From: a virus
Length of the DNA stretch: 47,068 nucleotides
Direction: 5' to 3' (one strand)
IMG/VR virus record: IMGVR_UViG_3300047408_000023
Span: 1-47,068 of that record
The notes under the pieces were generated by a model. It was not told the DNA's origin. It made no database searches and saw only the letters and a program-made list of their open reading frames with translations. The position numbers were made by a program, and so were the translations under genes. Below are positions 5,477-23,200 of this stretch, piece by piece; position 1 is the stretch's first letter; every line of letters starts with the position of its first letter.

Positions 5477-8400
5477 AATCCCTTTATTTCCTTTGCTAAC
5501 TGTCTGCCCCATATTGGCACTCCCTGTCTCACTACCGCCCTAGTCAGGGGTGCGCCTATATCCTTGTCTAGATTCCCTGCCCCTATATCCTGTATTGCAT
5601 TCCATCCACTCTCTCCAGCGCCAAGACTCAAGTCTAGTGCAGTATCTACTGAGGGTCCAGCAAGCTGGCCTAGTCCTCGTTTCATATCTCCACTAGCCAT
5701 CGTATGAACTGCATCTCCTATAAGCCCTATACCGTAGGCTTGGGATGCATTATCTATATATCTCAGAGCTAGATTAGATGGGCGTCCTGCTAGTGTCCCA
5801 TGCCTAAGTAGTTCCTTGATATCAGCAGGAACCTCACCAAGCACACCAGATGCCATAGCTAGTTTCAGAGTAGGATTTATCTTGCCATGACTCAAATCAA
5901 GAATCATAGCATCCTTTATATTCTTACTCTGGATGAACGCATACTTCTTGAACTGAGTAAGTAGATTAGCTGTTGGATTATTGCTCCAAGCATGTGGCAA
6001 ATCCAACACATTCTGTCTACCCTGAGTCAAGTCAGTAAATCTACTAGCTGCTCTCTTAGTCTGTGTCTCAGTAAGTTTATCCTGTGCTAGCAAAGTCTCA
6101 GGCTTCTCAAGTGTAAGCTCACTCAGACGTTCAGCAGCATATGCATTATCTGGATTCTGCTTAAGCTGTTCAAAGAACTTGTTAGCAGTCTTCTCACCAG
6201 CCAGTCCTGATACAGTTCTGAGGAAATTCTCTACTGAGGTATTACCCCAGGATATCTTAGAGCCATATCCTATATCCTCAGCAGCATCCTTCATAACACT
6301 CTCAAGACTACCAAGTTCCTGTGCTCTGAGTTTACCTTCAGTAGTGAATGCCTTAGCTATCTCAGGAAGTAGACTTCCCTTAGCCCTAGCAAATGATGCA
6401 GTCAAACCACCCATTAAGTTGGACGGCGCAGACAATGCTAGCTTAGTCATAGCTTGGAACTTAGTGAGTCTGTTCACACCCTTATCTACATTCAGCTTTT
6501 CTTTACCCAGATATTTCTCGACTATATCACTAGCCATCTGCTTGCCTTCACCGCCAGACTCTGCACCTACTTGGTCTATCAGTTGGTTGATTTTAGTTCC
6601 TACACCACTGGTATCATTCACACCAAAATGCTGGTCTGTGAATGCACGTTCAGCCAAGTCTAGATAGTGCTGGTGCATTACGTCTATGCCAGTCTTATAG
6701 CCTTGTATGTTGGCTGTTCTCTCATGTAGTGAATCACTCATTGTAGGACTAAACTTCCTAGCCCTATCAAGTAGATTCTCTGCCTGAGAGAAAGTCATCT
6801 TACGTTCAGCAGCTATCTGGTTGATTATCTTAGTTCTATTCTCCTCAAAGAATCCCTTCTCAAAGATATGAGGGAAGTAGTTAGACAGAGCCTCGAATGG
6901 GACTAGCTTACCAGAGGCAGACTTCATCATAGAACCTGACTTACGCATCAGGTCTAGGAGTTTAGCTTCATTAGCTTTGTAGACATCTATATACCTACGG
7001 ACCTGCATATCCGTAGTCTTAGCCTTACCCTCTATTACTTGATGGGCTGTGGTTATTTGTTCTTTAGACAAACCATCAGCGGCCCTAGTCAAATCTGCTG
7101 ATAATCCACCGGCAAATCCTGCGGCATCTGCATCTATCTTCCTAGCTGTTAGGTCAATTTCTGCACCAGCCGGACCAAGACTCTTTAGTCTATGACTATT
7201 AGACTGTCCAATCTTTCCCCATAGTCCACCAACATCCTTAGCTGCTTCCTTAGTCTGACCTATAACTGATGGGTCAACAGGAGCGTCAGCCTTGAGAGTA
7301 GCGGCAGCAGCCTTAACCTCAGGGTCAAGACTCTGATTGGCTATATCATCTACTACGCTAGTAAAGCCACCCTTCTCACCCATCGAGAATCCACCACGTC
7401 CTGATACTGCACTAGTAGGTGGAGATTCTAGGATTGGTGGCAGCCCACCTCTAACTGGCATATTTACAGATGGACTAAATCCAGCGCCGGACTGTGGCTC
7501 TGTTGTATTAAATCCACTAGATGGCGGTGGCTCCAGATTTGGCATCGGGTCATGTAATCTTCTAGTAGCATCACCCGGAAATTGTGATACCTCACCTATA
7601 GGAGATGGTTCTGGTGGGGCAGCAGGAGGCCCAAATCCAGTATCTCTAGGTCCAACAGATACCGGCCCCGTAGGAGGCAAGTCTAGAGATGGGGGCACAC
7701 TAGGAGGCATGTCACCTAATGGGGTAGCCTCTGGAGGCACAGCCAGTCTAGGAGCAGGTATAGGCTCGACGGATGGCAATTCTTCAGGTGGCCTCTCTAG
7801 GACTCCACCTTCAGCCAGTGGTCCCAAGTCTGCACTGACCTTCATGCGCTTGACATTAGGTGCAGTGGTAATCTCAGGTAGACTAGGCTCCGGCGTAGGC
7901 TCAGGCTCTACCTTAAATCTCTCAGGCGTCATAGCCTCAAGCCAAGACTGTGCTCTCCTAGGCCAGAGAGATTCTGGTATAGTCCTATAGAGTGCAGCGT
8001 CTGGGCCTTCTGGTAGACCCGGAACCATTTCACCTCTACCCTTTACAGGAGCACCAGTCTTTCCTCTATTCTTACGGAATGCTTCTATATCCTTAGACGC
8101 TGCTGTTCCCTCATCAAATCCCATCCTAGTAGAACCGGGTTCAGCAGGTTGCTGAGGGAATGTAGAAGAAGTCATAAATCTCCTGACACTCTCAGGAGTC
8201 GGACTATCTCTCCTAGCATTCTCAGCAGCTATCTGTGCTCGTATAGCAGCATCCTTCTCAGCATAGATTCCAAATCCTGATGGCTGGTCCTGAGGATATA
8301 GAAGCTGCTCAGGATTCCTAGCCATCCTCATAGCAGCAGCTAACGTAGTATCAGCCGCACGATTAGTCGGGTTTATATCAGGATAAGTCTTTTCCGTAGC

Positions 8401-9405
8401 TGCCGGGTCGCCACCTTCTACATACGTCATAGAGTGTGGTTCAGCAGTAATGTCAGGTATAGGCTGTCCCCTAGAATCTAGACCCCTCAATACACTAGCC
8501 CTATGTTCAGGGTCTATCCACGGTGGTGCTAGTGCATCTTCACCATACGATGCATCACCAGTATCATACTTAGGTGTAGTGGCATTAGCTCTAGCTTCAG
8601 CTATACCAGCAGCTTCAGCCGCAGCCCTAGCACTAGCTTCATTAGTAGCTCTTACTCTCTCCCTAGCATTACCTGCCTTGACTCTCTCACCAGCAGAGTG
8701 AGCACCAGCTAATCCGACAGCCCCCATTAACTGACCGCCAGATAGGTTAACTTCTCTAGGAGATATAGGAGTATCTGTCAGTCCTGCTGCATATGCTGCA
8801 CCATGACCTACATTCCATAATGCGCGTAGAGGAACAGGAGAGAACATTCCTGCTCCTTCTTCAGCAGCACTAGTAGCCATTCCTGTAGCATCACCTGCAT
8901 TAGCTTGGTCCATGAATCTTCTAGTAGTTCCCTCTAGACCCTGATATCCTGGGACCATAGACTTAGCTATGTCAGTTCCAGCATTCCAGATATTATCTAG
9001 TGGTTTGCCTTCGTTAGTAGCTAGTCTCCTAGCTGATTCTATAGCAGCTTCAGGAACTCTAGGAGTGAAAGTGTTCTTTAGAAACTCTGCTGTGCTCTTA
9101 CCAAAATCGAGTAGACCTTCGCCCTTTTCTTTCCAATCCTGCCATGTAGCCGAAGTATCTGTGACTGGCTTAGGAGGGTCGAAAGAACTAGACTCCGCAG
9201 TATGTCTGTTAGGGTCAGTTATCCACTGATGTGCTCGGCGCTTCTCTACTACTTGGTCAAGAAAATCCTTCTTAGTCTTAATCGTGCTCATGTCGAAAGT
9301 GTAGACAGTTCCATCGTCGTCAGCTAGGTCCATCAAATTGGCTTCCCTAGCTGCTTCTTCATCAGGAGATGGCAGGTTGATATCTCTACCTCTAGGAAAT
9401 GGCAT
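5473..9405 (-). CDS. large virion protein, 1310 aa, putative internal/ejection protein with a Pro-rich central region
   Basis: Longest ORF and last gene of the late operon. Long P/G/S-rich low-complexity segment. No catalytic motif recognised. Confidence 0.55.
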   Translation of the reverse strand: MPFPRGRDINLPSPDEEAAREANLMDLADDDGTVYTFDMSTIKTKKDFLDQVVEKRRAHQWITDPNRHTAESSSFDPPKPVTDTSATWQDWKEKGEGLLDFGKSTAEFLKNTFTPRVPEAAIESARRLATNEGKPLDNIWNAGTDIAKSMVPGYQGLEGTTRRFMDQANAGDATGMATSAAEEGAGMFSPVPLRALWNVGHGAAYAAGLTDTPISPREVNLSGGQLMGAVGLAGAHSAGERVKAGNARERVRATNEASARAAAEAAGIAEARANATTPKYDTGDASYGEDALAPPWIDPEHRASVLRGLDSRGQPIPDITAEPHSMTYVEGGDPAATEKTYPDINPTNRAADTTLAAAMRMARNPEQLLYPQDQPSGFGIYAEKDAAIRAQIAAENARRDSPTPESVRRFMTSSTFPQQPAEPGSTRMGFDEGTAASKDIEAFRKNRGKTGAPVKGRGEMVPGLPEGPDAALYRTIPESLWPRRAQSWLEAMTPERFKVEPEPTPEPSLPEITTAPNVKRMKVSADLGPLAEGGVLERPPEELPSVEPIPAPRLAVPPEATPLGDMPPSVPPSLDLPPTGPVSVGPRDTGFGPPAAPPEPSPIGEVSQFPGDATRRLHDPMPNLEPPPSSGFNTTEPQSGAGFSPSVNMPVRGGLPPILESPPTSAVSGRGGFSMGEKGGFTSVVDDIANQSLDPEVKAAAATLKADAPVDPSVIGQTKEAAKDVGGLWGKIGQSNSHRLKSLGPAGAEIDLTARKIDADAAGFAGGLSADLTRAADGLSKEQITTAHQVIEGKAKTTDMQVRRYIDVYKANEAKLLDLMRKSGSMMKSASGKLVPFEALSNYFPHIFEKGFFEENRTKIINQIAAERKMTFSQAENLLDRARKFSPTMSDSLHERTANIQGYKTGIDVMHQHYLDLAERAFTDQHFGVNDTSGVGTKINQLIDQVGAESGGEGKQMASDIVEKYLGKEKLNVDKGVNRLTKFQAMTKLALSAPSNLMGGLTASFARAKGSLLPEIAKAFTTEGKLRAQELGSLESVMKDAAEDIGYGSKISWGNTSVENFLRTVSGLAGEKTANKFFEQLKQNPDNAYAAERLSELTLEKPETLLAQDKLTETQTKRAASRFTDLTQGRQNVLDLPHAWSNNPTANLLTQFKKYAFIQSKNIKDAMILDLSHGKINPTLKLAMASGVLGEVPADIKELLRHGTLAGRPSNLALRYIDNASQAYGIGLIGDAVHTMASGDMKRGLGQLAGPSVDTALDLSLGAGESGWNAIQDIGAGNLDKDIGAPLTRAVVRQGVPIWGRQLAKEIKGF

Positions 9406-10722: not shown

Positions 10723-12105
10723 TTAACCCCACAATCCAGCCATGCCGGAACTTCCCATGCCACCTATACTTTTAGTAGCTTTACCTATTCCACCTAGAGC
10801 GCCAATTCCTGTCATTGCACCAGCAGCCGAACCTACTAGGCCACCGATAGTAGATGCCCAATCTCTCTGTGGATTGTTAGCCATTCTAGCTTGCGATACA
10901 TCCACAGTCTGACCAGTATTCTGGCCCATCATCTGACGCTGTGCAGTATCGTAGTATCCAACTTCAGCAGGACTAGATGTATAGAGATTACCAAGTCCGC
11001 CAAGACCTGCAAGTCTATTATCTGTCTGGAAGTTTGCAAGCCACTTCTCATTAGCTGCATTGTTAGCTGCATTAGCAGAGGCAGCAGATGCAGCGGCTCT
11101 CTGAGCAGCAGCTTCTTTATCTGCAATTCCCTCAAGACCTTGTGTGCCAAACATCTTTCCACGCTGCACAAGTTCTTGACCACCAATATCAGCACCACTA
11201 AGACCAGTAGCTGCACTAGTTCTATTCTGTGCAATGGAGTTGAGCATATTAGCTTCCATGCTCCCTGCACCCTGTAGACCTGCGAGTTTATTAGAACTCA
11301 TCAAGCCTTGTATATTCTGCTCATTACTAGATACGCCCTGAGCACCGGCTAATCTACCTGACCTAATAGAATCCTGCAAGCTAGCTTCTGCGTCTGTAGC
11401 AGCACGATTAGTATCGTAAGCAGAACTACGCGCCATCTGTGCAATGGCGGCAGGATTATAGTTTCCGGTAATCCCAGACATACGATTAGCAGTATCCATC
11501 GCAGTCTGATACTGTGCAGGGATACCTGCCGTAGCTCTCTGGCGATATGCAGTTTGCTGTGCATCATCGTATCCGCCAGTCTTAGCAAACTCATCATAGA
11601 CGCCATTACCGCGCATTCTAGCTATAGCTTCGTCAGTCAGGCCACCAGTCTTACCTATATCCTTAAGACCAGCGATGTTAGAATCCATCGAAGCTATTCT
11701 AGATGGGTCCCATCCACCGCTACTAGCAAGACCATGCAACTGACTCATTGCATAGTTATTCTCTGCTAGGTTAACGCCACCGCCACCCATGAAATTCTTA
11801 TAGGCGGCTGAGACATCTCCATATCCACCGGCCCCATAATTAGGTGCTGCTGCTCCACCGCCACCACCACCGCCACCAGTGCCACCACCTCTAAGAGAAG
11901 CAAGTAATTCTGGGCTTACGCCACCATTCTTAGCAATATCTGAATAGCCACCATACATGGTGCTATACATATCATTAGCATTAGAGCGAGCGGTCGCACG
12001 TTCAGGTGCAGTCCTAGATAAATAATCCGTAGTATAGTTTGCTTGCTGACCCTGAGCTTGATTCAGCATAGCATTGGTTTTATTTTTCTCAGTCCCCTTT
12101 GCCAT
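10723..12105 (-). CDS. Gly/Ala/Asn-rich virion protein (putative internal protein)
   Basis: 460-aa ORF with a poly-Gly tract GGGTGGGGGGGG and a G-rich C-terminus. Confidence 0.5.
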   Translation of the reverse strand: MAKGTEKNKTNAMLNQAQGQQANYTTDYLSRTAPERATARSNANDMYSTMYGGYSDIAKNGGVSPELLASLRGGGTGGGGGGGGAAAPNYGAGGYGDVSAAYKNFMGGGGVNLAENNYAMSQLHGLASSGGWDPSRIASMDSNIAGLKDIGKTGGLTDEAIARMRGNGVYDEFAKTGGYDDAQQTAYRQRATAGIPAQYQTAMDTANRMSGITGNYNPAAIAQMARSSAYDTNRAATDAEASLQDSIRSGRLAGAQGVSSNEQNIQGLMSSNKLAGLQGAGSMEANMLNSIAQNRTSAATGLSGADIGGQELVQRGKMFGTQGLEGIADKEAAAQRAAASAASANAANNAANEKWLANFQTDNRLAGLGGLGNLYTSSPAEVGYYDTAQRQMMGQNTGQTVDVSQARMANNPQRDWASTIGGLVGSAAGAMTGIGALGGIGKATKSIGGMGSSGMAGLWG

Positions 12106-12114
12106 GATTAACTC

Positions 12115-12516
12115 CTACGTCCGTATTCTGGACCTGAAATTTCCAAATCCAGTAGGAGGACCGCTAGGAGCGTTAGGATTCTGAGGCAAAGCCATAGGAG
12201 GACGCATCATAGGCTGGTCAGGCATAGGTCTACGAATAGCAGTAGGAGCCTCAGCAGGATTCTGACCTGTCTGAGCAAGTCTCTGAGCCATGAAGTTGTT
12301 ACCACCGGGCGGCTGCATAGTAGTCGGACCCGGAGGCTGTAGAGCATTTATAGTAGGAGCACCACCCATTCCCGGTATGGTTCTCTGTGCATTCTGCAAA
12401 GCCTGCATAGGATTCATACTAGGCTGAGGTAGACCACTCTGTTGCATAGCCTGTAAAGGATGCTGCATTGACTTTATAGGATGTTGCAGTAAATTTGCTC
12501 CTGGAATTTTAGCCAT
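12115..12516 (-). CDS. Pro/Met/Gln-rich small protein
   Basis: 133-aa low-complexity ORF; 8-nt overlap with the upstream gene. Confidence 0.5.
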   Translation of the reverse strand: MAKIPGANLLQHPIKSMQHPLQAMQQSGLPQPSMNPMQALQNAQRTIPGMGGAPTINALQPPGPTTMQPPGGNNFMAQRLAQTGQNPAEAPTAIRRPMPDQPMMRPPMALPQNPNAPSGPPTGFGNFRSRIRT

Positions 12517-12892
12517 TTGTCTTTACCATCAAACACTGACCCACCGTATCGTTATAACCAAAATGCTTCTTGAGGATTTTAGCGAAGTTTTCGTCCCTCA
12601 CAAAAGCATGAGCCTGCTCTATATTCTTATTTGAGCAGCCTATTTGTTGTGCTTCTAGTAGTAACGTGATTGTTTCTATCTTGTCTCTAATGCTTTGCGA
12701 ATGGTCTATTACAAAGAGTCCTTCGGCAAAGAGTTTAACAATCCCGAATCCTCTAATTCCTTCTCCACTATCAACGACACCGGAGATGACGGTGTTGCTA
12801 GTATTCGGGAGGCCAAACTGCTCTGAATAATGTTGTCTCCAAATCCTGTCAATTTCTGCAAGGTCTGCATTCCTATTGTAGCGGAACTCCAT
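12509..12892 (-). CDS. GNAT-like acetyltransferase (tentative)
   Basis: 127-aa ORF. ATG is preceded by AAGGTG. The C-terminal ..AHAFVRDENFAKILKKHFGY.. resembles the GNAT motif A/B region. The first 184 nt overlap the upstream ORF. Confidence 0.35.
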   Translation of the reverse strand: MEFRYNRNADLAEIDRIWRQHYSEQFGLPNTSNTVISGVVDSGEGIRGFGIVKLFAEGLFVIDHSQSIRDKIETITLLLEAQQIGCSNKNIEQAHAFVRDENFAKILKKHFGYNDTVGQCLMVKTNG

Positions 12893-14160
12893 GTATACAC
12901 CTTTCTAGTAGTATAGTTATAGCAGACCACCATTCCGTCTAGCTTGTCTATGAGATGATAGTTCTCTTGGAATCTCTGTTCAGCTACAAGAATATAGTCC
13001 TTCTTCACCATGTCATACTGGAATATATTCTTACACTCTATTGATATTCCACTACCATTCAGTAGCTTCTCAGCACGCTGACATTTATCAATAGAAACTT
13101 CCACGCCGGACAGTGAATAGGTAGGGAATCTACGGCGCAGGATTTGAAGTAGCCTGCCATTCCCACATCCCAAATCTACTAGTGAACGCTTCTCAGATGG
13201 GTTCATGAACTGTTCAATTTCTTTCATGAGCCAAGCATGAGCCTCACGCTCATCCTTCTCTGATTGAAATCCATTATCATCAGGTGGAAATTCAAGTGAT
13301 TTGTGGAAACTTACAGTCTCAGTCAGCTTCACTCTCTGCTCATTAGCAAATGGAAATGCTAGACCTGAACCTGAGTGAACTGGTATGAAAGCACCAGGCT
13401 TCTGGAACTTGTATTCAAATGGAGTAGCATCAGTCTTAGTAACTATCTTGAAGATTGGTGTTCTAATCTCAGCATAGCCATGAAGTGCTGACCATTCCAT
13501 TGGCATATCACAGAGTTTGTGAATAGTCTGTGAAATCTTAGCCATTCCATGCTGAAGCATCAGTGCTTGTATTCTCTGTGCCATCTCTCGTGTAGCATCA
13601 CAGTAGAATCCACATGGAAGATGAAATACTGGTCTAACCCCTAGACATCTCAGCATGACATTGCATAGAGGATGGAACTCTCCCTTAGAATTCTCATACT
13701 GAGGCCATGTCAGGTCGAAATAGTGCTGCTGATTCCACCAATAATCGAAATTACTCACACAGCACACAGGATATCCGAGTCGGGACTCAGCCTGATGCTG
13801 ATTATCCTCGAAATACTCAGGTTCTCTATGTATTGCTACACGATATTGGAATTTATTGGTAATTTCTGCTACATGCCTAGATGAATACATGCCAGTATCA
13901 GCCATCTTACCAAGCATGGTCATGTATAGCTTGCTATCTATCACTCTCCTAGAGAATTCTAGAATATTGTTTGGTGGTATAGATAATATTGCAGCTTCTC
14001 TCAGACCATCAGCAACAGATAGGAACTCTACTTCCTGCCAAGACACACTAATCTGATTTATGAGTGGTTCCCAATAATCTCTTGCAGCCTTAGACACCCA
14101 GATTGTGCTAGTTGTATCTGGGATATTCTGCGTAGCATCAGGCAATCTAGTTAGCGGCAT
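12709..14160 (-). CDS. Cys-rich N-terminal domain fused to a class-I SAM-dependent methyltransferase
   Basis: MTase motif I LVDLGCGNGRLLQIL, then GVEVS and DYILVAE. The N-terminal ~300 aa carry YPVCCVSNF and CNVMLRC...LPCGFYC. 14-nt overlap with the rSAM gene. Confidence 0.6.
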   Translation of the reverse strand: MPLTRLPDATQNIPDTTSTIWVSKAARDYWEPLINQISVSWQEVEFLSVADGLREAAILSIPPNNILEFSRRVIDSKLYMTMLGKMADTGMYSSRHVAEITNKFQYRVAIHREPEYFEDNQHQAESRLGYPVCCVSNFDYWWNQQHYFDLTWPQYENSKGEFHPLCNVMLRCLGVRPVFHLPCGFYCDATREMAQRIQALMLQHGMAKISQTIHKLCDMPMEWSALHGYAEIRTPIFKIVTKTDATPFEYKFQKPGAFIPVHSGSGLAFPFANEQRVKLTETVSFHKSLEFPPDDNGFQSEKDEREAHAWLMKEIEQFMNPSEKRSLVDLGCGNGRLLQILRRRFPTYSLSGVEVSIDKCQRAEKLLNGSGISIECKNIFQYDMVKKDYILVAEQRFQENYHLIDKLDGMVVCYNYTTRKVYTWSSATIGMQTLQKLTGFGDNIIQSSLASRILATPSSPVSLIVEKELEDSGLLNSLPKDSL

Positions 14161-15268
14161 TTCTAACCTCTACTTGTATGCTCTTGAAATCATAATGGTC
14201 TAGATGTGGAGTATCATTATGCTGATTCGTTGCTAATGCACGAGGATTGTATCCTATCTTATCCTCATAATACTTGAACAGACGCATCAGTAGTCCACAG
14301 TGTCGAGTTTTATTTCTCCAGTCGTCAGATTCTCCTGGACATTCACCTCGACAAACTGGGAAATACCTACAATCCTGACAGCCCCCGTATTCTTGGGGTG
14401 TATTGATAAGTGCATGGTGGCGTTCATTCCAGTCGGTGTCAGACTTAAGCCAATTGATACCGTCTTTATTTGTCCGGCCACAGTTTGAAAGGGTTCCATC
14501 GGGATTGATTCCATGGACCGCCTCAGTTCTGAGCGGATTGCATCCACCCCAAATACAAGTAGGCGAGAAATCTTCACCCTTCATCATACGTGGAATGTCA
14601 GAGAAGATATCTATGTTAATCTTATGGTCTAGTTCGGCAAGCTCTGTGATTGCCTTGAATGATTCATTCTCAGATAGAGCCACACGCTCTACAAGTTTAT
14701 GGTCTACTTCTAATAGATGCAATCTAGCACTTGTCAATCCCATGCCAGACAACATTACAAACCATTTCTTGAGAGTCTCTAGCTTCTCACCAACTGCATT
14801 CTTTTTGTGAAGTGTAACAATCAGAGATACACTCAACTTCCCGGCGCGGAGCATATTAGTCATATTAGTATGACTTCTCTCCGTCATTGTCCGTGTCTTA
14901 GTTAATGAGCCAGCCCACCGTAAATCATTTAATTCTTCCGGGCCGTCCATTGAGAATCCGACATGGACATTATACTTCTCGAATAACTCTATGTGCTTAG
15001 GAGTTATCAGACTACCGTTGGTCTGTATCCCATTCTGCTTGTATTTCTCGAAACCGTATTTGAACAGTTTCTCAAGAATATCAATTGGAGTAACTAGAGC
15101 CTCGCCACCGAATATAGTAAACGATTGGTTAGCATTATCCAATGCCTCAATCATCTTATCTACATTCATAATTGTAGCGAAGTTGCCAGCATCTCTCATA
15201 GGATTCTGATAGCAATAGCTACAGGATAGATTGCACTTGATTCCGCTAGGTAGAATTTCAACAGACAT
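14147..15268 (-). CDS. radical SAM enzyme with C-terminal SPASM-type auxiliary Fe-S domain
   Basis: CNLSCSYC (Cx3Cx2C) at residues 12-19. GGE motif FGGEAL. C-terminal Cys clusters CIWGGC...NCG...GGCQDCRYFPVCRGECPGE. Confidence 0.85.
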   Translation of the reverse strand: MSVEILPSGIKCNLSCSYCYQNPMRDAGNFATIMNVDKMIEALDNANQSFTIFGGEALVTPIDILEKLFKYGFEKYKQNGIQTNGSLITPKHIELFEKYNVHVGFSMDGPEELNDLRWAGSLTKTRTMTERSHTNMTNMLRAGKLSVSLIVTLHKKNAVGEKLETLKKWFVMLSGMGLTSARLHLLEVDHKLVERVALSENESFKAITELAELDHKINIDIFSDIPRMMKGEDFSPTCIWGGCNPLRTEAVHGINPDGTLSNCGRTNKDGINWLKSDTDWNERHHALINTPQEYGGCQDCRYFPVCRGECPGESDDWRNKTRHCGLLMRLFKYYEDKIGYNPRALATNQHNDTPHLDHYDFKSIQVEVRNAAN

Positions 15269-16188
15269 TAGGGACCTACATAGGTCGGGAAGTCGATGTG
15301 TGCAATATCATTATGCCCATCATCGTGAGCTACATCTAGATGTGCAGAATCACCATGAGCAGAATCTGTGTGAGCTACATCAGAATGTGAATCACTATGA
15401 GCAGTATCAATGTGAGCTTTATCCTGATGTGCTACGTCTGAGTGTGCATCAGTATGTGCTCTGTCACCATGCCCTACGTTTTCAAACGGTGTATCTCCAT
15501 GTGCTGTATCAACATGCGCTGAGTCACTATGTGGAGTAACATCATTATGCGCTCTATCACTATGCGGAGGAGGTGGTAAAGTTCCAGTATCCCAATGACC
15601 TAAAGAATCACTATGGTCTGTATGAACTCCAGGTGCATTATCTATATGTGGAACATCATAAAATGGTGTATCACCATGAGAATCACCGTGGTCAACTTGG
15701 TCTGTATGGTCACGATGCGGATAATCAATGTGAGTCACATCTGTATGCGTATCAGTATGACTATCTCCATGTGCAGTATCCGCGTGCGCTCCATCTACGT
15801 GCGAGTCAGTATGGGTATCATTATGTGCTAGGTCTGTATGAGCAGAATCAGAATGAATTGTATCTGAATGCCCATCAGCATGGGTAGTATCAGAATGTCC
15901 CTCTACCTCTACTCCGGCAGTTGCTTCTATCCAGTGAATCCTAGATATGACAGCCCACAAACTACCAACTATAGCACCTGACGGAGTTTTTATAACTACA
16001 TAGGGAATTATCCTATTAGTTCCAAATGCATCTATGTAATGAACATATTGATTTTCAACCCATAGACTACCAGGTATAGCTCCAGCCGGAGTATTTACTG
16101 GGTCGCCTACATAGTAGTATTCTTCATTGGCTTGGTCTACAAAATGCAAGCCAGTTCCATCTACCCAGATTGATGGTAGCTTAGCCAC
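15268..16188 (-). CDS. fibre-like protein: three N-terminal SxW...H(F/Y/W)(V/I)(D/E) repeats plus a C-terminal His-Xaa-Asp repeat domain
   Basis: GTG start immediately after, and in frame with, the stop of 16189..16650. About 39 HxD triplets in residues 98-306. The stop overlaps the rSAM start (TAATG). Confidence 0.7.
   Translation of the reverse strand: MAKLPSIWVDGTGLHFVDQANEEYYYVGDPVNTPAGAIPGSLWVENQYVHYIDAFGTNRIIPYVVIKTPSGAIVGSLWAVISRIHWIEATAGVEVEGHSDTTHADGHSDTIHSDSAHTDLAHNDTHTDSHVDGAHADTAHGDSHTDTHTDVTHIDYPHRDHTDQVDHGDSHGDTPFYDVPHIDNAPGVHTDHSDSLGHWDTGTLPPPPHSDRAHNDVTPHSDSAHVDTAHGDTPFENVGHGDRAHTDAHSDVAHQDKAHIDTAHSDSHSDVAHTDSAHGDSAHLDVAHDDGHNDIAHIDFPTYVGP
15271..15897 (-). repeat. coding tandem repeat: ~39 HxD units with mostly 4-5 residue period
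   Basis: HSDTTHADGHSDTIHSDSAHTDLAHNDTHTDSHVDGAHADTAHGDSHTDTHTDVTHID...AHTDSAHGDSAHLDVAHDDGHNDIAHID. Confidence 0.9.
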
Positions 16189-16650
16189 TTATGTAGCCCA
16201 CTTATTTGCGCCTACGGGAATGACTAGAGCATTTCTAACATAGATTACATTGGGTCGGACTGCTGCACTTCCTATGTTTCTGGTCCCATCTGTATCAAAT
16301 GTTATATGACCAGACACTTGGAGACTTGAGATACCAGTGATAGTTCCACCAGTAATAGCAACAGCTACAGCATTCTGGGTAGCCATAGTGCCTAGCCCAA
16401 GACCTGCTATAGCTCCAGAAACAGAGGAAGCTCCAGTTCCACCACCAGCAACAGATATTATTTTATCAACCCAAGCAGTGCCATTCCATTCCTGGAATTT
16501 ATTATTAGCCCTATCATATCTGATAGAGCCAACAGGTTGATTAGATGGCACATTTAGGAACAGAGTTGCACCATCAACATCCTTGAAGTTTAGGCTATCA
16601 AGGACATCTGTATACAAATCTGTTATTGTTGGTTTTCCCCAATCTGCCAT
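16189..16650 (-). CDS. tail fibre N-terminal-type protein
   Basis: 153 aa. GGTGA..GLGLGTMATQNA..ITGGTITG motif is typical of phage fibre proteins. Lies in the fibre gene block. Confidence 0.6.
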   Translation of the reverse strand: MADWGKPTITDLYTDVLDSLNFKDVDGATLFLNVPSNQPVGSIRYDRANNKFQEWNGTAWVDKIISVAGGGTGASSVSGAIAGLGLGTMATQNAVAVAITGGTITGISSLQVSGHITFDTDGTRNIGSAAVRPNVIYVRNALVIPVGANKWAT

Positions 16651-16651
16651 T

Positions 16652-16849
16652 TTACTTCTCTACTTCTCTTGGGAACTCTCTCTGAGCTTTTAGTTCAGTT
16701 AGTTCAGTCTGGAGTTTATCAGCTTCAGCAGCTTTTGCATTATAGGCAGCAGTCATTTCATTTATAGCATTATCCTGCCTATTGAGAATTATAGTCTGCC
16801 GAGCAATCACTCCAAGAAGTTCGTCTAGATTAGTTTCCATTGCAGGCAT
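16652..16849 (-). CDS. small coiled-coil protein
   Basis: 65-aa ORF with heptad-like sequence, between fibre genes. Confidence 0.5.
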   Translation of the reverse strand: MPAMETNLDELLGVIARQTIILNRQDNAINEMTAAYNAKAAEADKLQTELTELKAQREFPREVEK

Positions 16850-16856
16850 TTGTCAC

Positions 16857-17129
16857 CTATTTGAGTAGAATATCAAACACGTCGTCAACAGCCTTACGGA
16901 GTTGTGAATCAGGAGAATCATCATTTAGATTCTGGTCATGCGCCATAGCCAATAGTGCCATTCTCTCGCTATGAAATTCTGCATTAGTCAGATATTCCCT
17001 AGCCTTGATACACTTTGGGTCTTCAGAATTCTTGGCAGCCTCTGAAAGAAATACATCCTCAGCAGCTACCATGAGTAGTCTCTTGATTACATTTGCATTC
17101 AGCTTTTCGATTACTCCACGATAGCTCAT
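16857..17129 (-). CDS. hypothetical protein (possible fibre assembly factor)
   Basis: Track ORF 16857..17150. The internal ATG at 17129 has GGGAG upstream and avoids overlap with the upstream gene. Confidence 0.5.
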   Translation of the reverse strand: MSYRGVIEKLNANVIKRLLMVAAEDVFLSEAAKNSEDPKCIKAREYLTNAEFHSERMALLAMAHDQNLNDDSPDSQLRKAVDDVFDILLK

Positions 17130-17130
17130 A

Positions 17131-18354
17131 CTATCTCCCTTCAAGAGCAACTATTCGCTGCTCATGGTCTTTCAATAAATCTAGGAATGATGCTAGAAAG
17201 GCGTGTTCACGAATTGAAGCTGGAGTCGTTTTATCTTCTTCATAGTTGACCAAATGTCGCAATCCAGCAGCGTCCAATTCCTCTGCGGAGAATCCCAAGT
17301 AGTCTCCGAATTTCTTTTCGGTATCCTCTTTAGCTGTATATAGAATGGGAGATATACTCAACAATGCTGCACGTTGTGGATTCGTCCAGCCACGTCGAAT
17401 ATCTTCCTTGAATCGTTCACTGGAACTTATTCTTCTAATATAGCCATCTGCTGCAAGAGTAATGGAGACTGACGCCGCAGCCGAACCAATACCGTTCGCG
17501 TAGATAAGTCCACTAGGAACAATATTCGTGCAGGAAATCGCGGCGCTGCACGTAACCCCCGCACATGTAAGACCTAATCCAAGATATAAGCCAGTGTTGG
17601 AGTATAATCCATAGCTGCCATGACTAGCGAGATACCAACTTCCCTGACTACCAGTAGCATCTATACGACCCGGATACATAACACCAGTATTCTGTATGTA
17701 TCCAGCACAAGTAAGGTTGCCAGCACTAATAGAAATTCCACCACCAAAGTTCGTTGCACCTGTTATAGTCAAATCTGCTAGGACATTACCACTCCCTATT
17801 GAGCTGAAGTTTAATGCTTTGAGAGAAGCCCAATTGGAAGCATCTGCAAGAACACATTCTGCTACAGCACCAGTATTTCTCCATGCTGGAAATGCAGCCG
17901 TAGCTCCACCAATCTTAATTGATGGCTGACCATTTGGGCCACCCACAATAGCAGCAGAACAATTAAGTCCACCAGCTGTGGAAATAGTGGCTACGTTAAC
18001 AATAGTCCCACCGGGTGGAGAGTAGTAGAAATACCATCCACCAGCAGCAGACTGGTGAAGCATTGTTCCACATTGTGATGGGTCATCTTGAACCCAACTA
18101 GCACCAGCATTTGGAGTAGATAAATTCTTAAGAAATGAGGCTGTATTTGCAACTGACTGAAGATGTGTTTTTCCAGCAGACCCATCAGTCAGAATTAAAT
18201 GTGCCCCACCAGTAGTAGGTAATACTCCCGGAGATACAGTCCCTTCATTAAGAATGGAGGCATTCAAAGGCAATGGGATATAAGATACCCCATCGTTTGT
18301 CGAGTATTCAAATATATGCGTTGTTTCATTCCAACGCATCCATTTAGTTGCCAT
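17131..18354 (-). CDS. tail fibre with C-terminal intramolecular-chaperone (peptidase S74-like) autoprocessing domain
   Basis: N-terminus is paralogous to 18357..19553. The C-terminus ISSSERFKEDI...GFSAEELD...LLKDHEQRIVALE matches the endosialidase-chaperone pattern. Confidence 0.7.
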   Translation of the reverse strand: MATKWMRWNETTHIFEYSTNDGVSYIPLPLNASILNEGTVSPGVLPTTGGAHLILTDGSAGKTHLQSVANTASFLKNLSTPNAGASWVQDDPSQCGTMLHQSAAGGWYFYYSPPGGTIVNVATISTAGGLNCSAAIVGGPNGQPSIKIGGATAAFPAWRNTGAVAECVLADASNWASLKALNFSSIGSGNVLADLTITGATNFGGGISISAGNLTCAGYIQNTGVMYPGRIDATGSQGSWYLASHGSYGLYSNTGLYLGLGLTCAGVTCSAAISCTNIVPSGLIYANGIGSAAASVSITLAADGYIRRISSSERFKEDIRRGWTNPQRAALLSISPILYTAKEDTEKKFGDYLGFSAEELDAAGLRHLVNYEEDKTTPASIREHAFLASFLDLLKDHEQRIVALEGR

Positions 18355-18356
18355 TA

Positions 18357-19553
18357 TTAACCACTACAAAGAGGACGCCAAGCTACATCATATAGCAGCA
18401 CTATGCCACCACCTGGAGCTATAGTGCTAGTAGCCATTGAGAGATTTCCACCAGCAGCCAGAGTAAAGCCTACAGCACTATTATTCCAGAGAAATATAAC
18501 TCGACCTGCGGTAGCTCCATTTATCGTTTGAATACTCTGACCACCGGCTGAAGGCGTAATGCTAACAATACTAACACCAGCTGGGATAGTTATAGTTGCA
18601 TTGATTTGAGCAATATTTAGACGTGCAATTCCTGTTATCTCAAATGAGGCAGTTTGAGTAACACCACTGTTTGCGATTCCACCAGTTGTGAGTCCATTAC
18701 CTTGTTGGTTGATACCAGTGCAGACAATAGCTCCACAATTAACTGGACCAAATGTAACAGTATTGTTATTAGAGTTAATAGTTGAACAGCTTAGTGCATT
18801 CATTGCTACGTTACCATTCAACGTAGATGCACCACCTACCCATAGATTTGAGTTAACATTTAGTGTGCTGTTTATGGTTACGCCACCACCAGCAGCAATT
18901 GTCATTCTAGAGGCATTAGAAGTTCTAAACTCTATAGGTGCAGCAGCACCTGAGTTAAGTAATATTCCACCTGCACCAGCAGAATAAAGAGCCAACCCAT
19001 CTGGAATAAATGCAGCATTACTTTGTGTAGTGCTAGTAAAGATTACATAGCCTCTAGCATCGCTAGCATTATTCTGGAATACCATACCAGAAAATGCACC
19101 AACACCACCACTAGTGTTAATCAAGTGGAGATAGTTACCACCATCTACAGAGGCAGAGAAATTATGGACGCCTGTTCCTACAACGCTATGAGTTACATTT
19201 CCATTTCTATCTAGAGACATTAAATTAGCCGTAGCAACACCGGCATCATTTAATATTCTACCAAGGTATAGGGCAGAACCCTCTGCCATTATCTCCCAAT
19301 TCTTAAGGTTAGCACCTACATCTGTTTCATTAAATCTAATTGATGGTGCAAGTCCAGAATAGGTGCTAATTCCAAGCCAAGTATTAGGACCAGATAGGGA
19401 TGCGCCACTACCACCGGGAATAGCACTAGGCGGCAATACTCCCTCTGAAATGATATTCGCACTCAGAGGAAGAAAAGTCCATGTAGTTCCATTGTTAGTG
19501 GAATACTCAAAGATGTGAGTAGTTTGATTCCATCTTATCCACTGGACTGCCAT
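18357..19553 (-). CDS. tail fibre / receptor-binding protein (second paralogue)
   Basis: N-terminus MAVQWIRWNQTTHIFEYSTNNG versus MATKWMRWNETTHIFEYSTNDG in the neighbouring gene. G/S/N/T-rich beta-type C-terminus. Confidence 0.65.
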   Translation of the reverse strand: MAVQWIRWNQTTHIFEYSTNNGTTWTFLPLSANIISEGVLPPSAIPGGSGASLSGPNTWLGISTYSGLAPSIRFNETDVGANLKNWEIMAEGSALYLGRILNDAGVATANLMSLDRNGNVTHSVVGTGVHNFSASVDGGNYLHLINTSGGVGAFSGMVFQNNASDARGYVIFTSTTQSNAAFIPDGLALYSAGAGGILLNSGAAAPIEFRTSNASRMTIAAGGGVTINSTLNVNSNLWVGGASTLNGNVAMNALSCSTINSNNNTVTFGPVNCGAIVCTGINQQGNGLTTGGIANSGVTQTASFEITGIARLNIAQINATITIPAGVSIVSITPSAGGQSIQTINGATAGRVIFLWNNSAVGFTLAAGGNLSMATSTIAPGGGIVLLYDVAWRPLCSG

Positions 19554-21049
19554 TAAACTATTCCTCTAGCTTTCCATGATACGGCGGCTGTAGTTCTTAC
19601 GCCAATGGAATTAAATACATATACCTTAAAGCCTGTAGGATTTGGGACATCCTGGAAATCATAGATAATAGTCAGTGGCTCAATAGCCTTAGTTCCAGTA
19701 ACTGTAATGGAATCTATATCTTTGAATGGCTTATTGAATAGAACCTGAGTTCCATTCGCATCTGTAGCTAGTGCAGTGACACCACCAGAATCGAGTTCAC
19801 GTTTCACATCTACTGAATAGGTTAGATTATAGAATAGAGCTAGAGCCTTATCATTATTGGATGTGAAGTCTATAGTAGCTCGGACATATCGGAACTGCTG
19901 CAAGAATACAGATTTGGCATGAACTATAGGAGTCCAAGTAACTTGGTCTAATGAACCCTCTACACCAGGCGTAGCAGTTACTGTAGGAACTATCTGGTCT
20001 ATCGTATAGTTCATATTGAATATGGTTGCAAACAGCGTAGTTCCATAATCAATAATCTCCTGATACTTACCACTGAGTAGTGTCGGCTGGATGTATATAG
20101 GATAGAAGTTATCTAGCTGGTCTTTAATCTTATTCCAACCCTGAGATGTAAAGTGGGTAGTCCAAGTCTTAGTTCCATCTATACATACAAGTATCTTACC
20201 TGTATTGTTTCCAATCCATGTCCAGTTCTGAGCAGAGATTAGACCAGCATCCCATCCATTAAACTCATCATTTACCCAACCAACTTCAGGACTACCATAG
20301 GGTAGAGCATTTACCTTCAGACCTGATAGGATGCTCTTTCTATAGTCAAGTAACTCAAAATCTGGAGGCTGTGCTACAACTAAGCTAACAGATGATGACG
20401 GCCCGATATTTCCAGCCATATCTGTAGGAAACACAGAATATGTATATGTGCCACCAGCAGATTCAAATACGGCTATGAAAGTTCCATGCTGTGTCCCTAC
20501 TATGACTCCACCCCTACTGATAGTGTAGTAATCAATATCCCATGTAGAGACAGGCTCAGACCAGCTTAGCAATACGTTGTTATCAATTACTCGACCATTG
20601 ATAGTTATAGCTCCAATGGGAGGAATCACAACATCGACGTATGCAAATCCAGACGAGGGAACTCCGGCGCCGTTAATTGACTTGAGAAGATATCTGGTAG
20701 TGCCAACTATGATTGGGTCAAGTCTTGCTTCTGTGATACCTGTGATAGTTATCTGTGATGCAGTATCCCAGTTAGTTCCTCTGCGAACTTCATATGTCCT
20801 AGCATTCGCAGCAGAATTCCATGTAAGGATTAGATTTCTACCAGTAGTTGAGTATGCAAATCCTGTGGGAGTATCAGGGATTGGCTCAGTTACAATCGTA
20901 GTAACTCTATCAATGATAGGGAATACTTTAGTTTGCAGGTCATCTACACTGTTTACTAACCCATTCAGAATATCATACAGGCGTGGGTCTACTTGCTGAT
21001 ATCCCTGTATCAGAGTAGTGATGTCAGATACACGAATGACATCAGTCAT
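19553..21049 (-). CDS. tail protein with fibronectin-III-like repeats
   Basis: PTGFAYSTTGRNLILTWNSAANARTYEVRRG and LLSWSEPVSTWDIDYYTISRG are FN3-like segments. ATGA-type coupling to neighbours. Confidence 0.55.
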   Translation of the reverse strand: MTDVIRVSDITTLIQGYQQVDPRLYDILNGLVNSVDDLQTKVFPIIDRVTTIVTEPIPDTPTGFAYSTTGRNLILTWNSAANARTYEVRRGTNWDTASQITITGITEARLDPIIVGTTRYLLKSINGAGVPSSGFAYVDVVIPPIGAITINGRVIDNNVLLSWSEPVSTWDIDYYTISRGGVIVGTQHGTFIAVFESAGGTYTYSVFPTDMAGNIGPSSSVSLVVAQPPDFELLDYRKSILSGLKVNALPYGSPEVGWVNDEFNGWDAGLISAQNWTWIGNNTGKILVCIDGTKTWTTHFTSQGWNKIKDQLDNFYPIYIQPTLLSGKYQEIIDYGTTLFATIFNMNYTIDQIVPTVTATPGVEGSLDQVTWTPIVHAKSVFLQQFRYVRATIDFTSNNDKALALFYNLTYSVDVKRELDSGGVTALATDANGTQVLFNKPFKDIDSITVTGTKAIEPLTIIYDFQDVPNPTGFKVYVFNSIGVRTTAAVSWKARGIV

Positions 21050-22902
21050 TAGAACTCTGGCCTCTCAGCCCACATTGCCATTCCATAGACCCAGATTCCT
21101 CTTACAGAGAAAGACTCGTCTATCTGGTCTACTTGGAATCTGAAAGACATGAGTTCATTCTGAGCACCAAGGAATTCTCTCTTGATTAACTGACCCGGTG
21201 ATGTAGATAGTAACAAGGACGGCGCCGTTATCACCAGTGTCTTATCAAGCGCGTATGCAGTTATCTGTAGATTCCCGTGACCACTAACTCTAAGCCTCAC
21301 ACCAGAGAACATACACATTCCACCCTTAGGGTCATGTGTAATGAGTGAAGTCTCAAAGTAAGCTATCTTAGGATTATTGAAATCATTTGGCGTAGACGGG
21401 TCAGCCTTGTATATATTCCCAGGCGCTCCCGCATACTTATATGTAGCTACCTTGTTTGCATAAACGATATCAACAAACGAAGCTACTAAATCAACAGGAA
21501 ATCTCCAAACAGCCCACTTGATATTTGCACTGTCCATACCCTCAGTATAGTCAGCATAGAGGATATGAGATGCCTGAGTCGCGCCGTCAAGTGGAACCAT
21601 CACATAGAGTTTTGAATCAATTGGATTCAGGCTTACAGTAATCTTATTGAACACCTGCCTATTGATTCGTTTCCAAATATCAGCTATCTTTCCAGACAAC
21701 TCATCACCGAATGTTCCATTGTATAGCATCAATCCCTGACGTGATGCCACAACAAATTTATCAGTTGTCTGTCCTTCGATATCTAATACTTGCTGTATTC
21801 CAAAGCATTCTGTGCCTACGGCCACATCAAGACTAGAGACATTCCAAGTAGCGGCAACGTCATTGTTAGTCTGTGTAACATAGCATCTGTAGGACTTAAA
21901 CATTATGAGCTGTGAACGAAATTCTACACAAGCTCTGGTAGTTCCACCGTTATCTTTGGGATAGCAATCTAGATATCCATCCACATCACTAAATGCTTCA
22001 GGCTGGTTTATCTGGCTTACTCTCACTCTGGACGGAGAGGCATCCTCACCACAGACTACCAAGGAATTCTTATAGATTGCCAGACCTACACCGGCGGGAC
22101 AGGTAGCACGTAAGTCTAGGAGATATGCAGCAGATGCAACTAATGAAGCGTCATAGAAATCTACAGTAGCAGTGGTAGTTGTATTATCTCCAACTCGTCC
22201 ACCCGGAACCATGAAGAATTCATACTGTGCTGGATTGCCATTGTAGTTCAGGATAGTTTCTGTAGCTACAATCCAGCGAGCAATAGTTCCGGCGGGGCCA
22301 ATTGGAATACCAGTGAGAGTTGCCTTCTTGCCGCCGATGGCATTTAGATTTGCCACAGGACCATACTTAGTAAGAAAGCCAGATGTAGTTTCAAATGCTA
22401 TAGCAAATAGATGTGTGCCAATTTCCACACTACCATCAGCAGTTGAATTCGCTACTATAGGAGCAACAGTTGGGCCAGCGCCTCCAGCGGGACGAGCTAA
22501 TCCCGCACCTTCATATACATATACAAGCTCACCCGGTAATCCCCTATCTCCATTGTGTGGACTGATATATGCCCTATCGAACATAACCACACATGAGAAA
22601 TCCGTCATTGCAGGGATTGTCAGTATGGCTACAGTTGGTGCAGTAGAATCATATATCGAGCCATTGTCCTTCAAACAAAGATATCTGGTAGCCTCACCAG
22701 ATTTCTCATAGGTATGAACACGAAGCAAAGGTCCAGTGATAGTTAAGTCTAGTGCTGAGCCAAACCTAGACCTAATCTCCCTAGTATCAAAGGATACATT
22801 AAATGCTTCTATAGAGTGGTTGAGAGGGACAGCTTCATCCTGTCCTCTATCAAACACACCCTTAAATTCATTTATTAACTTTGCTTCGTGTTCGGCTATC
22901 AT
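21049..22902 (-). CDS. large tail structural protein (nozzle/tubular-type, putative)
   Basis: 617-aa ORF between the head-completion genes and the fibres. Confidence 0.45.
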   Translation of the reverse strand: MIAEHEAKLINEFKGVFDRGQDEAVPLNHSIEAFNVSFDTREIRSRFGSALDLTITGPLLRVHTYEKSGEATRYLCLKDNGSIYDSTAPTVAILTIPAMTDFSCVVMFDRAYISPHNGDRGLPGELVYVYEGAGLARPAGGAGPTVAPIVANSTADGSVEIGTHLFAIAFETTSGFLTKYGPVANLNAIGGKKATLTGIPIGPAGTIARWIVATETILNYNGNPAQYEFFMVPGGRVGDNTTTTATVDFYDASLVASAAYLLDLRATCPAGVGLAIYKNSLVVCGEDASPSRVRVSQINQPEAFSDVDGYLDCYPKDNGGTTRACVEFRSQLIMFKSYRCYVTQTNNDVAATWNVSSLDVAVGTECFGIQQVLDIEGQTTDKFVVASRQGLMLYNGTFGDELSGKIADIWKRINRQVFNKITVSLNPIDSKLYVMVPLDGATQASHILYADYTEGMDSANIKWAVWRFPVDLVASFVDIVYANKVATYKYAGAPGNIYKADPSTPNDFNNPKIAYFETSLITHDPKGGMCMFSGVRLRVSGHGNLQITAYALDKTLVITAPSLLLSTSPGQLIKREFLGAQNELMSFRFQVDQIDESFSVRGIWVYGMAMWAERPEF

Positions 22903-22906
22903 TTGT

Positions 22907-23200
22907 CTATACCGCAGCGATAGCAGGATACCACTTGTTCTGTGAGCGGCTATAGACTAGAGTCTGAGCACGATTGACTACCAGAGCTACAGCAACAGCT
23001 ATATTACCAGTCGCCACAAGTGTAGCAGCAGCGAGAGGAATAAGAGTAACTGCCTGATTCCCAACACCCGGAGTCTTAGGAATTAGATTTGCGATAGCAG
23101 CCGTGCCTGACACAATGAGAACGTCAGCATTAGCTTCCATAGTTGGTGCTGATGCTACAATTCTCTCTGAGAGTTTACTTATCTGTCCTGGAAATGACAT
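22907..23200 (-). CDS. small virion protein
   Basis: 97-aa Ala/Val-rich ORF in the structural block. Confidence 0.5.
   Translation of the reverse strand: MSFPGQISKLSERIVASAPTMEANADVLIVSGTAAIANLIPKTPGVGNQAVTLIPLAAATLVATGNIAVAVALVVNRAQTLVYSRSQNKWYPAIAAV

Follow-up and report, generated by a model that had tools for sequence, protein, structure and literature searches.

A phage protein with 39 His-x-Asp motifs as a candidate multi-site substrate of an adjoining radical SAM/SPASM maturase

The window analysed here is the whole 47,068-nucleotide (nt) stretch of the virus record IMGVR_UViG_3300047408_000023 (IMG/VR, positions 1 to 47,068). Its minus strand carries three overlapping genes, the first encoding a 306-amino acid (aa) protein dense in His-x-Asp motifs, hereafter the HxD protein, the second a radical S-adenosylmethionine (SAM) enzyme with a SPASM domain, hereafter the maturase, and the third a DUF483-like domain fused to a methyltransferase. 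The stop codon of the HxD gene overlaps the ATG of the maturase (TAATG), indicating translational coupling, and the start of the third gene overlaps the maturase stop by 14 nt. The corresponding features are the following.

15268..16188, minus strand: HxD protein gene, GTG start, 306 aa
15898..16188, minus strand: N-terminal domain of the HxD protein (aa 1–97), three β-hairpin repeats (G)SxWV.G..(L/V)H(F/Y/W)(V/I)(D/E)
15292..15897, minus strand: array (aa 98–299), 39 H-x-D plus F-Y-D and F-E-N, proposed multi-site substrate
15271..15288, minus strand: C-terminal tail PTYVGP (aa 301–306), predicted β-strand beside the N-terminal domain
14147..15268, minus strand: radical SAM/SPASM maturase, 373 aa, Pfam Radical_SAM at E 1.2e-13
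14180..14215, minus strand: C-terminal tail of the maturase, HND-tp-HLD-HYD (aa 352–363), a mini-array of the substrate motif
13351..14160, minus strand: DUF483-like domain (residues 1 to ~270 of the third gene product, which has 483 aa), assigned by alignment and conserved motifs
12847..13263, minus strand: class I SAM-dependent methyltransferase domain (aa ~300–438 of the third gene product), Pfam Methyltransf_25/23/12

The HxD protein contains exactly 39 H-x-D triplets, with His positions spanning residues 98–297, in agreement with the approximate count given in a preliminary description of this DNA. Every one of the 39 His of residues 98–306 is part of such a triplet, so that His and Asp indeed sit two positions apart throughout this region; with Asp at ~20%, the chance of finding it at +2 of all 39 His is of the order of 0.2^39. 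Over these 209 residues, the 39 His and 42 Asp account for 18.7% and 20.1%, respectively, close to the 20% each estimated earlier. The 4–5-residue period that had been proposed holds for the commonest His-to-His steps, 5 (20 times) and 4 (9 times), but steps of 6 (three times), 3 (twice), and 8–11 (four times) are also observed, the last at Pro-containing linkers. The three linkers TPFYDVP, GTLPPPP, and TPFENV are all present as described, and the first and the last hold F-Y-D and F-E-N, two further aromatic-x-Asp/Asn motifs. The spacers between motifs are of 0–8 residues, mostly 1–2, and the protein has no Cys.

In the AlphaFold2 model of the HxD protein, calculated with a 41-sequence alignment, residues 1–97 form an all-β domain with a predicted local distance difference test (pLDDT) score of 85–98, residues 98–300 are without secondary structure (pLDDT 42–56), and residues 301–306 (pLDDT 91) carry a strand at positions 302–305. 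We read this strand as pairing with the N-terminal domain, an arrangement that would make the array a closed flexible loop. Since the array is predicted to be unstructured, it should be accessible to an enzyme. The three N-terminal repeats announced as GS(I/L)W...H(F/Y/W)(V/I)(D/E) are recognizable, except that the first copy reads PSIW instead of GSIW. Conserved positions include W8, G40, S41, W43, and W78 in the N-terminal domain, and, in the C-terminal tail, the invariant P301 and G305, which is at least 90% conserved. The β-helix with stacked His and Asp ladders that was suggested from the repeats is not borne out by this structure prediction: the spacing of 3–11 departs from the strict five-residue period of pentapeptide-repeat proteins, no strands are found in residues 98–300, and no Pfam repeat family is matched. 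Because the steps are irregular (3, 4, 5, and 6), His and Asp could not stack in register.

Searches with Pfam, NCBIfam, PHROGs, and PADLOC assigned the HxD protein to no family, and a Foldseek comparison of its model with the PDB returned nothing at E ≤ 0.001. The weak top PDB matches are hairpin-repeat solenoids (the glucan-binding domain of DSR-E, TcdA, and LytA) and are taken as a lead only. Against BFVD, a single match was obtained at the same threshold, a 342-aa viral protein with 38% identity that resembles a homologue. The N-terminal domain used as sole query retrieved 318 representative clusters at E ≤ 1e-3.

Comparison with relatives reveals which positions of the array are maintained. 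In locus L009, the maturase is 90% identical to that of the window and the array protein 67%, the two array proteins being aligned in register. His is kept at 38 of the 39 sites, 12 of them with a synonymous change, and Asp at all 39, 9 of them synonymous, while the x residue differs at 22 of 39 sites and the other positions at 40 of 90. The contrast is sharper in L019 (maturase 64% identical), where His is kept at 36 and Asp at 37 of 38 sites and x is changed at 32. Across the family, the arrays of 120 homologues hold 3404 His, and 95.4% of these belong to an Hx[DN]. These substitution patterns show residue-specific purifying selection on the array His and Asp.

The maturase carries the CxxxCxxC motif of the radical SAM cluster (C12x3C16x2C19) and a full seven-Cys SPASM motif (C243-X14-G258-X4-C263, C297x2C300x5C306x3C310, and C324), plus C238; the cluster cysteines are invariant across 31 homologues. 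As the radical SAM cluster starts at residue 12, there is no space for an N-terminal recognition domain. This layout is that of the XyeB, OscB, YhhB, AmcB, and DynA models and is unlike that of the DarE, HxsB, and CefB models. Partial NCBIfam matches to anSME, DynA, AmcB, PapB, GrrM/OscB, and YhhB all fall far under the cutoffs, and the best matches across the maturase family are to anSME, AmcB, DynA, YhhB, and GrrM/OscB. In bits relative to the curated cutoff, the scores are 66/425 for AmcB, 51/310 for GrrM/OscB, 50.5/445 for YhhB, and 39/450 for XyeB. With a family profile, the closest solved structures are anSME (4k36) in the first place and the triceptide synthase ChlB (9gm3) in the second. 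More than 1250 homologues were found at E ≤ 1e-20. By its sequence, the maturase represents a new clade of SPASM peptide/protein maturases, and we infer the reaction type from the substrate motif, not from the enzyme. The mini-array at its C-terminus is a recurrent trait, with at least three Hx[DN] after the SPASM motif in 54 of 120 maturase homologues and a maximum of 11 (also in L001, L003, L015, and P0121–P0240); its role might be that of a self-substrate, a pseudo-substrate, or a tether.

The DUF483-like domain of the third gene product displays the invariant motifs LGYPxCC, HLPCxFxC, and HG.AE, whose four Cys and two His suggest a metal or Fe-S site. Its homologues in Thermus phages give weak matches to Pfam DUF483 (E 5e-4 and 0.011). 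The DUF483/methyltransferase protein is modelled by AlphaFold2 with pLDDT mostly of 80–95, and Foldseek relates this model to small-molecule and peptide N-/O-methyltransferases at E ~5e-7; the PDB matches listed appear to concern the methyltransferase domain only, with none for the DUF483 fold. In L101, the DUF483-like domain and the maturase share one open reading frame (ORF) of 702 aa, and in L109 a 943-aa ORF spans the maturase position and carries the DUF483 and methyltransferase motifs.

The same genes recur together in other genomes. We fetched loci via the maturase alignment and inspected 60 unique viral loci with at least 3 kb upstream of the maturase; a hidden Markov model census was made on the 50 viral loci with both flanks complete, and 65 loci from the same scan with only distant radical SAM genes (22–36% identity) served as controls. 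Of the 60 loci, 57 encode, on the maturase strand, an ORF with at least 10 Hx[DN], and in 41 of these 57 it ends no more than 120 nt from the maturase start. In the 50 fully flanked loci, an Hx[DN] array occurs in 47, a DUF483-like gene in 49, a methyltransferase domain in 46, and either an array or the hairpin domain in 49, while none of these features is found in the 65 controls. Seen from the substrate side, a maturase adjoins 11 of 12 HxD genes examined. The earlier proposal of an array of modification or crosslink sites is thus strongly supported by the coupled radical SAM/SPASM gene and by the recurrence of this pairing in viral contigs.

In a set of 5.8 billion proteins, we found 139 homologues of the HxD protein, which retain its N-terminal domain, its array, and, at the C-terminus, the P..(I/V)GP tail. 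As for the repeat number, whose comparison among relatives had been recommended, it is 39 in the two other assemblies discussed below and ranges from 11 to 57 HxD in all 120 listed homologues. Many phage loci have two to five tandem array paralogues or array-bearing proteins of 700–1476 aa; nine such giant proteins searched with Pfam and PHROGs gave one Laminin_G_3 match and nothing else. Orthologous maturases also occur at 13 bacterial genomic loci, all with a DUF483-like gene. Two of these, from metagenome-assembled genomes, carry small precursor-like ORFs directly upstream (L101:4686-4949 and L095:4311-4670; 88–120 aa, ~9 HxD). A third metagenome-assembled bacterial locus (L108:1-2964) encodes a 988-aa protein with a Y-D-D array.

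The nearest GenBank phages are the Thermus phages Cumys and phiMa (tblastn, 34–48% identity). A megablast of the 12 kb around the gene (12000-24000) found no match among GenBank phages. Both Thermus phages carry, co-linearly and in the baseplate/tail region, an HxD protein (54 and 53 HxD, respectively), a radical SAM gene, and a DUF483 gene. In Cumys, Cumys_13 is 34–36% identical to the HxD protein, Cumys_12 is 47% identical to the maturase, and Cumys_11 is the DUF483 protein. The radical SAM module reported in these phages (PMC11437467) has three homologous genes in the same order, except that its third gene has no methyltransferase domain, unlike that of the window. Kolesnik et al. 2024 gave the first gene as of unknown function and proposed DNA modification, with no mention of His-x-Asp repeats (PMC11437467). 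The HxD module is the Cumys/phiMa module, whose substrate and function had gone unrecognised. The module is also present, in a different gene arrangement, in a large myovirus, the Thermus phage phiLo (L003, 178 kb): phiLo_137 (11810-13033, minus strand), with more than 70 HxD, lies by IS605-type transposase genes, ~4 kb from the maturase/DUF483 pair and on the opposite strand.

The position of the HxD gene suggests a role in the virion tail. It lies downstream of tail genes in a minus-strand late operon that runs down from the large terminase at 30501-32198. The gene immediately upstream is as follows.

16189..16650, minus strand: 153-aa gene, tail-fibre-type proximal module, ending ...LVIPVGANKWAT

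The 153-aa protein has weak PHROG tail-fibre matches (E 5e-4 to 7e-4), and its C-terminal motif also precedes the HxD gene in L005 and L009–L014. In P0012 and P0025, members of a large subfamily, the hairpin domain and the HxD array are joined in one protein to a module bearing this same ...VIPVGANKYED motif, and other array family members carry a Laminin_G_3 or a PF01835 domain (precomputed). The HxD gene follows tail genes in both lambda-like and T4-like contigs and belongs to the baseplate/tail module of Cumys. PHROG, Pfam, and Foldseek searches gave no fibre-domain match for the HxD protein itself. That the protein is a phage fibre, as first assumed, is hence plausible from gene order and gene fusions, and these suggest that it is rather probably a component of the virion tail.

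The family members differ in the residues that build their arrays. Variants that share with the HxD protein the three-hairpin N-terminal domain and the C-terminal H.DQP.YVGP tail carry Phe-x-Asp/Asn (P0285), Tyr-x-Asp (P0269), Trp-x-Asp (P0286 and P0275), His-x-Asn (L014 and P0298), or mixed arrays (L033, L035, and P0344). Phe-x-Asn/Gln/Ser arrays with the same tail are found in L040 (1151-2197) and L074 (3196-4983), the latter abutting its maturase. The 869-aa protein of L035 has 97 motifs, 55 HxD and 42 HxN. In the array family, position 1 is occupied by His far more often than by any other residue. As Phe, Tyr, Trp, and His arrays are mounted on the same scaffold, selection acts on any aromatic residue at i and Asp/Asn at i+2. 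On inspection, the use of HxN or HxD showed no obvious link to the presence of the methyltransferase.

This pattern is that of the triceptides, in which the Cβ of residue i+2 is linked to a carbon of the aromatic ring by radical SAM enzymes of the SPASM type (PMC11002830, PMC11499958). Known links are Trp-C7 to Cβ of Asn/Asp (OscB), Tyr-C3 to Cβ of Asp (YxdB), and His-C2 to Cβ of Ala/Arg/Lys (HaaB, ScaB, YhhB, and HtkB) (PMC11002830, PMC11499958). There are thus precedents for His-C2 to Cβ links and for Asp/Asn as X3, while His-x-Asp is not among the crosslinks of these two papers. The HxD protein has the same aromatic1-X2-X3 motif, often repeated, as the substrates of XyeB/XncB, GrrM/OscB, FxsB/MscB, YxdB, HaaB, YhhB, HtkB, and ChlB, and, as in those systems, a SPASM radical SAM enzyme without N-terminal recognition domain is encoded beside it. 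Differences are also evident: the 306-aa substrate (up to 1476 aa in relatives) has a folded domain and ~40 sites (up to 97), a DUF483-like partner, usually fused to a methyltransferase, is obligatory, the module resides in a phage tail region, and the enzyme scores under the cutoff of every curated model of enzymes that form three-residue cyclophanes (3-CyFE). In addition, the substrate is not a short leader-core precursor, and the searches of the neighbouring genes yielded neither a peptidase nor a transporter. By analogy, then, the system would work like a triceptide system that fails two of its features, the curated enzyme families and the short leader-core precursor.

We propose that the HxD protein is a tail-appendage protein that serves as a giant multi-site substrate for His-to-Asp crosslinking by the adjoining maturase, with a rough probability of 0.6. 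Its parts are not equally firm. Gene coupling and recurrence make it very probable that the array is the substrate of the maturase; the analogy with triceptides makes an i-to-i+2 aromatic-to-Cβ crosslink the likelier bond, at a lower level of confidence. Several observations weigh against the proposal. None of the curated cyclophane-synthase models is passed (39–66 bits for cutoffs of 310–450) and, because the maturase is about equally close to anSME, PapB, and the cyclophane synthases, its reaction cannot be read from the sequence alone. The substrates known from triceptide systems are short peptides of leader-core type rather than proteins of 300–1500 aa, and this chemistry has so far been known only in small peptides of bacteria. 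HXS, the nearest published His-x-Ser system, shows a +8 Da change at one site instead of −2 Da crosslinks (PMC13128918). The PHROG tail matches of the HxD neighbours are weak. Finally, four of the 13 bacterial maturase/DUF483 loci have no array within 5 kb (L096, L102, L105, and L107), and one HxD gene with 28 HxD (P0059/L006) has neither maturase nor DUF483 gene within 8 kb; in this case, the enzyme may be elsewhere or the array unmodified. Locus L006 (ERZ25039554 contig_18563) is a prophage adjoining an integrase and the sole exception among the 12 substrate-side loci.

According to the proposed mechanism, the HxD protein would be made as a folded three-hairpin domain followed by a flexible array of ~200 residues and a short docking C-terminal strand. 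The maturase would most likely abstract a Cβ hydrogen of each Asp and link the resulting carbon to the His imidazole two residues upstream, giving a triceptide-type three-residue cyclophane, probably His-C2 to Asp-Cβ and less likely a C-N bond. The DUF483-like/methyltransferase protein may assist the maturase or act after it. The result would be a chain of up to ~41 small rings, mostly with spacers of 1–2 residues, that is rigid, resistant to proteases and heat, exposes imidazole nitrogens and carboxylates, and could be displayed on the tail beside the fibre proteins. In terms of ring number, this would amount to 39–41 consecutive three-residue macrocycles here and up to ~97 in relatives, a picture that we hold as plausible rather than probable. 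It is likewise only tentatively that we extend it to many tailed phages, among them 47-kb metagenomic phages, Thermus siphoviruses and myoviruses, and T4-like contigs, which might turn a disordered stretch of a tail appendage into a poly-cyclophane by means of a radical SAM/SPASM enzyme and its DUF483 partner. Two other chemistries were discarded: thioether formation, as the HxD protein has no Cys, and formylglycine formation of the anSME type, as Ser at the x position is not conserved.

Alternative explanations concern the array itself, the reaction, and the partners. Repetitive coding DNA is prone to mis-assembly and the antisense frames are open, so that the repeat could be an assembly expansion or collapse, or the true gene could lie on the opposite strand; the preliminary description regarded such an artefact or another reading frame as fatal to its claim. 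Neither was found. Contigs from two other samples, Logan SRR31252420 (43 kb) and ENA ERZ27256750 (5.8 kb), encode a protein of the same 306-aa length with all 39 H-x-D, with 4 aa and 21 of 921 nt changed relative to the window. The DNA copies inside the array are only 62–86% identical to each other, and no long exact repeat was detected in the array DNA. The 139 homologues are in the same frame, and in alignments of the orthologues, which are in register, codons for His and Asp have changed synonymously. The plus-strand ORFs 15231-15539 and 15573-15887, antisense to the array, we read as by-products of the repeated codons, because the antisense of the His codon CAY is RTG, a start codon. An artefact or a wrong frame is therefore extremely improbable. 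A second alternative takes the array, modified or not, as a high-capacity chelator of divalent metals (Zn, Ni, Cu, Fe, and Mn), possibly a β-helix ladder, which would serve adhesion, stability, or the capture of metals. The classical ligands His and Asp together form ~39% of the 209 residues, His is the predominant position-1 residue, and, after a C2/Cβ crosslink, the nitrogens and carboxylate would be free and pre-organised, so metal binding could come as a secondary property. However, homologues with the same scaffold use Phe, Tyr, and Trp at position 1 and Asn, Gln, and Ser at position 3; because both positions vary, the need is for an aromatic-x-(CH2-bearing residue), not for a ligand pair. 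Phe and Trp are non-ligands, which weakens the previously suggested metal ladder as a conserved function. The spacing is irregular, with neither an AlphaFold2 β-helix nor a Pfam repeat, and metal binding alone would leave the obligatory radical SAM/SPASM and DUF483 partners unexplained. We consider this explanation improbable.

A further possibility, unlikely but of some weight, retains the array as substrate with a reaction other than the i-to-i+2 cyclophane, such as an HXS-like +8 Da change, epimerisation, β-hydroxylation or methylation of Asp, C-methylation of His, or distant or interchain crosslinks polymerising the fibre. The near-equal distance of the maturase from anSME, PapB, and the cyclophane/ether synthases is compatible with it, HXS exemplifies a different modification on a His-x-Ser repeat protein, and in 46 of the 50 viral loci the third gene includes a methyltransferase. 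Conversely, the strict co-conservation of any aromatic residue at i and Asp/Asn at i+2 favours a crosslink over a change of single residues. Against a cutoff of 370, the HxsB model reaches 40.8 bits, and neither HxsC nor HxsD is present, which speaks against HXS-like chemistry, and Pfam and NCBIfam searches found no B12-binding domain that would suit a radical methylase. Lastly, the radical SAM/DUF483/methyltransferase module might modify phage DNA or a small molecule, with the HxD protein as an unrelated neighbour, an unmodified, disordered, acidic protein of the tail. Radical SAM/DUF483 homologues do adjoin deazapurine DNA-modification genes in cyanobacteria (PMC11437467), and the four bacterial loci without an array within 5 kb include one from a Microcystaceae metagenome-assembled genome (L096). 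Nevertheless, SPASM domains are typically found in enzymes that modify peptides and proteins. Of the 60 viral loci, 57 have an array, which in 41 of the 60 lies directly against the maturase, as compared with 0 of 65 controls. The maturase tails themselves carry Hx[DN], and the precursor-like ORFs of L095 and L101 place HxD motifs upstream of bacterial maturases as well. These data render this alternative very improbable.

Among known systems, the HXS antiphage system (PMC13128918) likewise relies on tandem His-x-(small polar) repeats and on maturation by radical SAM enzymes. It comprises HxsA, whose His-x-Ser repeats come with a peptidoglycan-binding domain, the radical SAM enzymes HxsB and HxsC, and HxsD, every repeat being functionally required, and operates in the phage-host conflict at the cell envelope (PMC13128918). 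HXS is bacterial and defensive, whereas the HxD module is phage-encoded and sits in a structural operon; HxsA has 5 HxS repeats instead of the 39 HxD described here, and two radical SAM enzymes with HxsD contrast with one radical SAM enzyme and a DUF483/methyltransferase protein. No NCBIfam HxsA match was obtained, HxsB remains far under its cutoff, and no HxsD was found. With another motif, another gene content, a bacterial setting, and a +8 Da modification, HXS was rejected as the identity of the module. PADLOC detected no defence family beyond generic viperin-like and methyltransferase matches. GrrA/OscA and TvgA/TvgB (poly-cyclopropylglycine) resemble the proposed system in that a single radical SAM enzyme acts iteratively on tandem short motifs, but their substrates are small secreted peptides, not a tail-module protein with a folded domain, and the motifs and enzyme clades differ. 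Our survey of the literature on phage cyclophane/radical SAM systems and on His-Xaa-Asp repeats found no description of the HxD system.

If correct, the proposal would extend radical SAM chemistry of peptides made by ribosomes and modified after translation (RiPPs) from short secreted peptides to full-size phage structural proteins, with an order of magnitude more sites per substrate than in known triceptides. A virion structural protein stapled through carbon-carbon bonds in the manner of RiPPs would be a first, and phages would gain a route to protease- and heat-resistant tail appendages. The product would be a protein material of a new kind, made rigid by covalent bonds and perhaps offering an ordered surface of His and carboxylate groups able to bind receptors or metals. 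The maturases would be established as a new clade, DUF483 would gain its first role, and the widespread phage radical SAM + DUF483 module, so far guessed to act in DNA modification (PMC11437467), would receive a function. A parallel would also be drawn with HXS, a bacterial defence in which radical SAM enzymes mature the effector, a protein with His-x-Ser repeats. Homologous modules exist in the cultivable Thermus phages Cumys, phiMa, and phiLo, and the natural His/Phe/Tyr/Trp and Asp/Asn variants constitute a ready specificity series for enzyme engineering.

Two minor observations concern the surroundings of the module. Downstream of it, a 1310-aa ORF (5473-9405, minus strand) has no PHROG match. 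Related contigs are 43–47 kb long, a size which suggests that the window is nearly a complete phage genome. Upstream, at 16186-16191, the TAA of the 153-aa gene is directly followed, in frame, by the GTG of the HxD gene. The junction is also in frame in L009 and L010 (TAG GTG) and in L014 (TAA ATG). Read-through joining the two genes was rejected, as this frame relation is not kept in L005, L011, and L012. From these comparisons, the junction looks like the outcome of gene fission or fusion and not like a conserved read-through.

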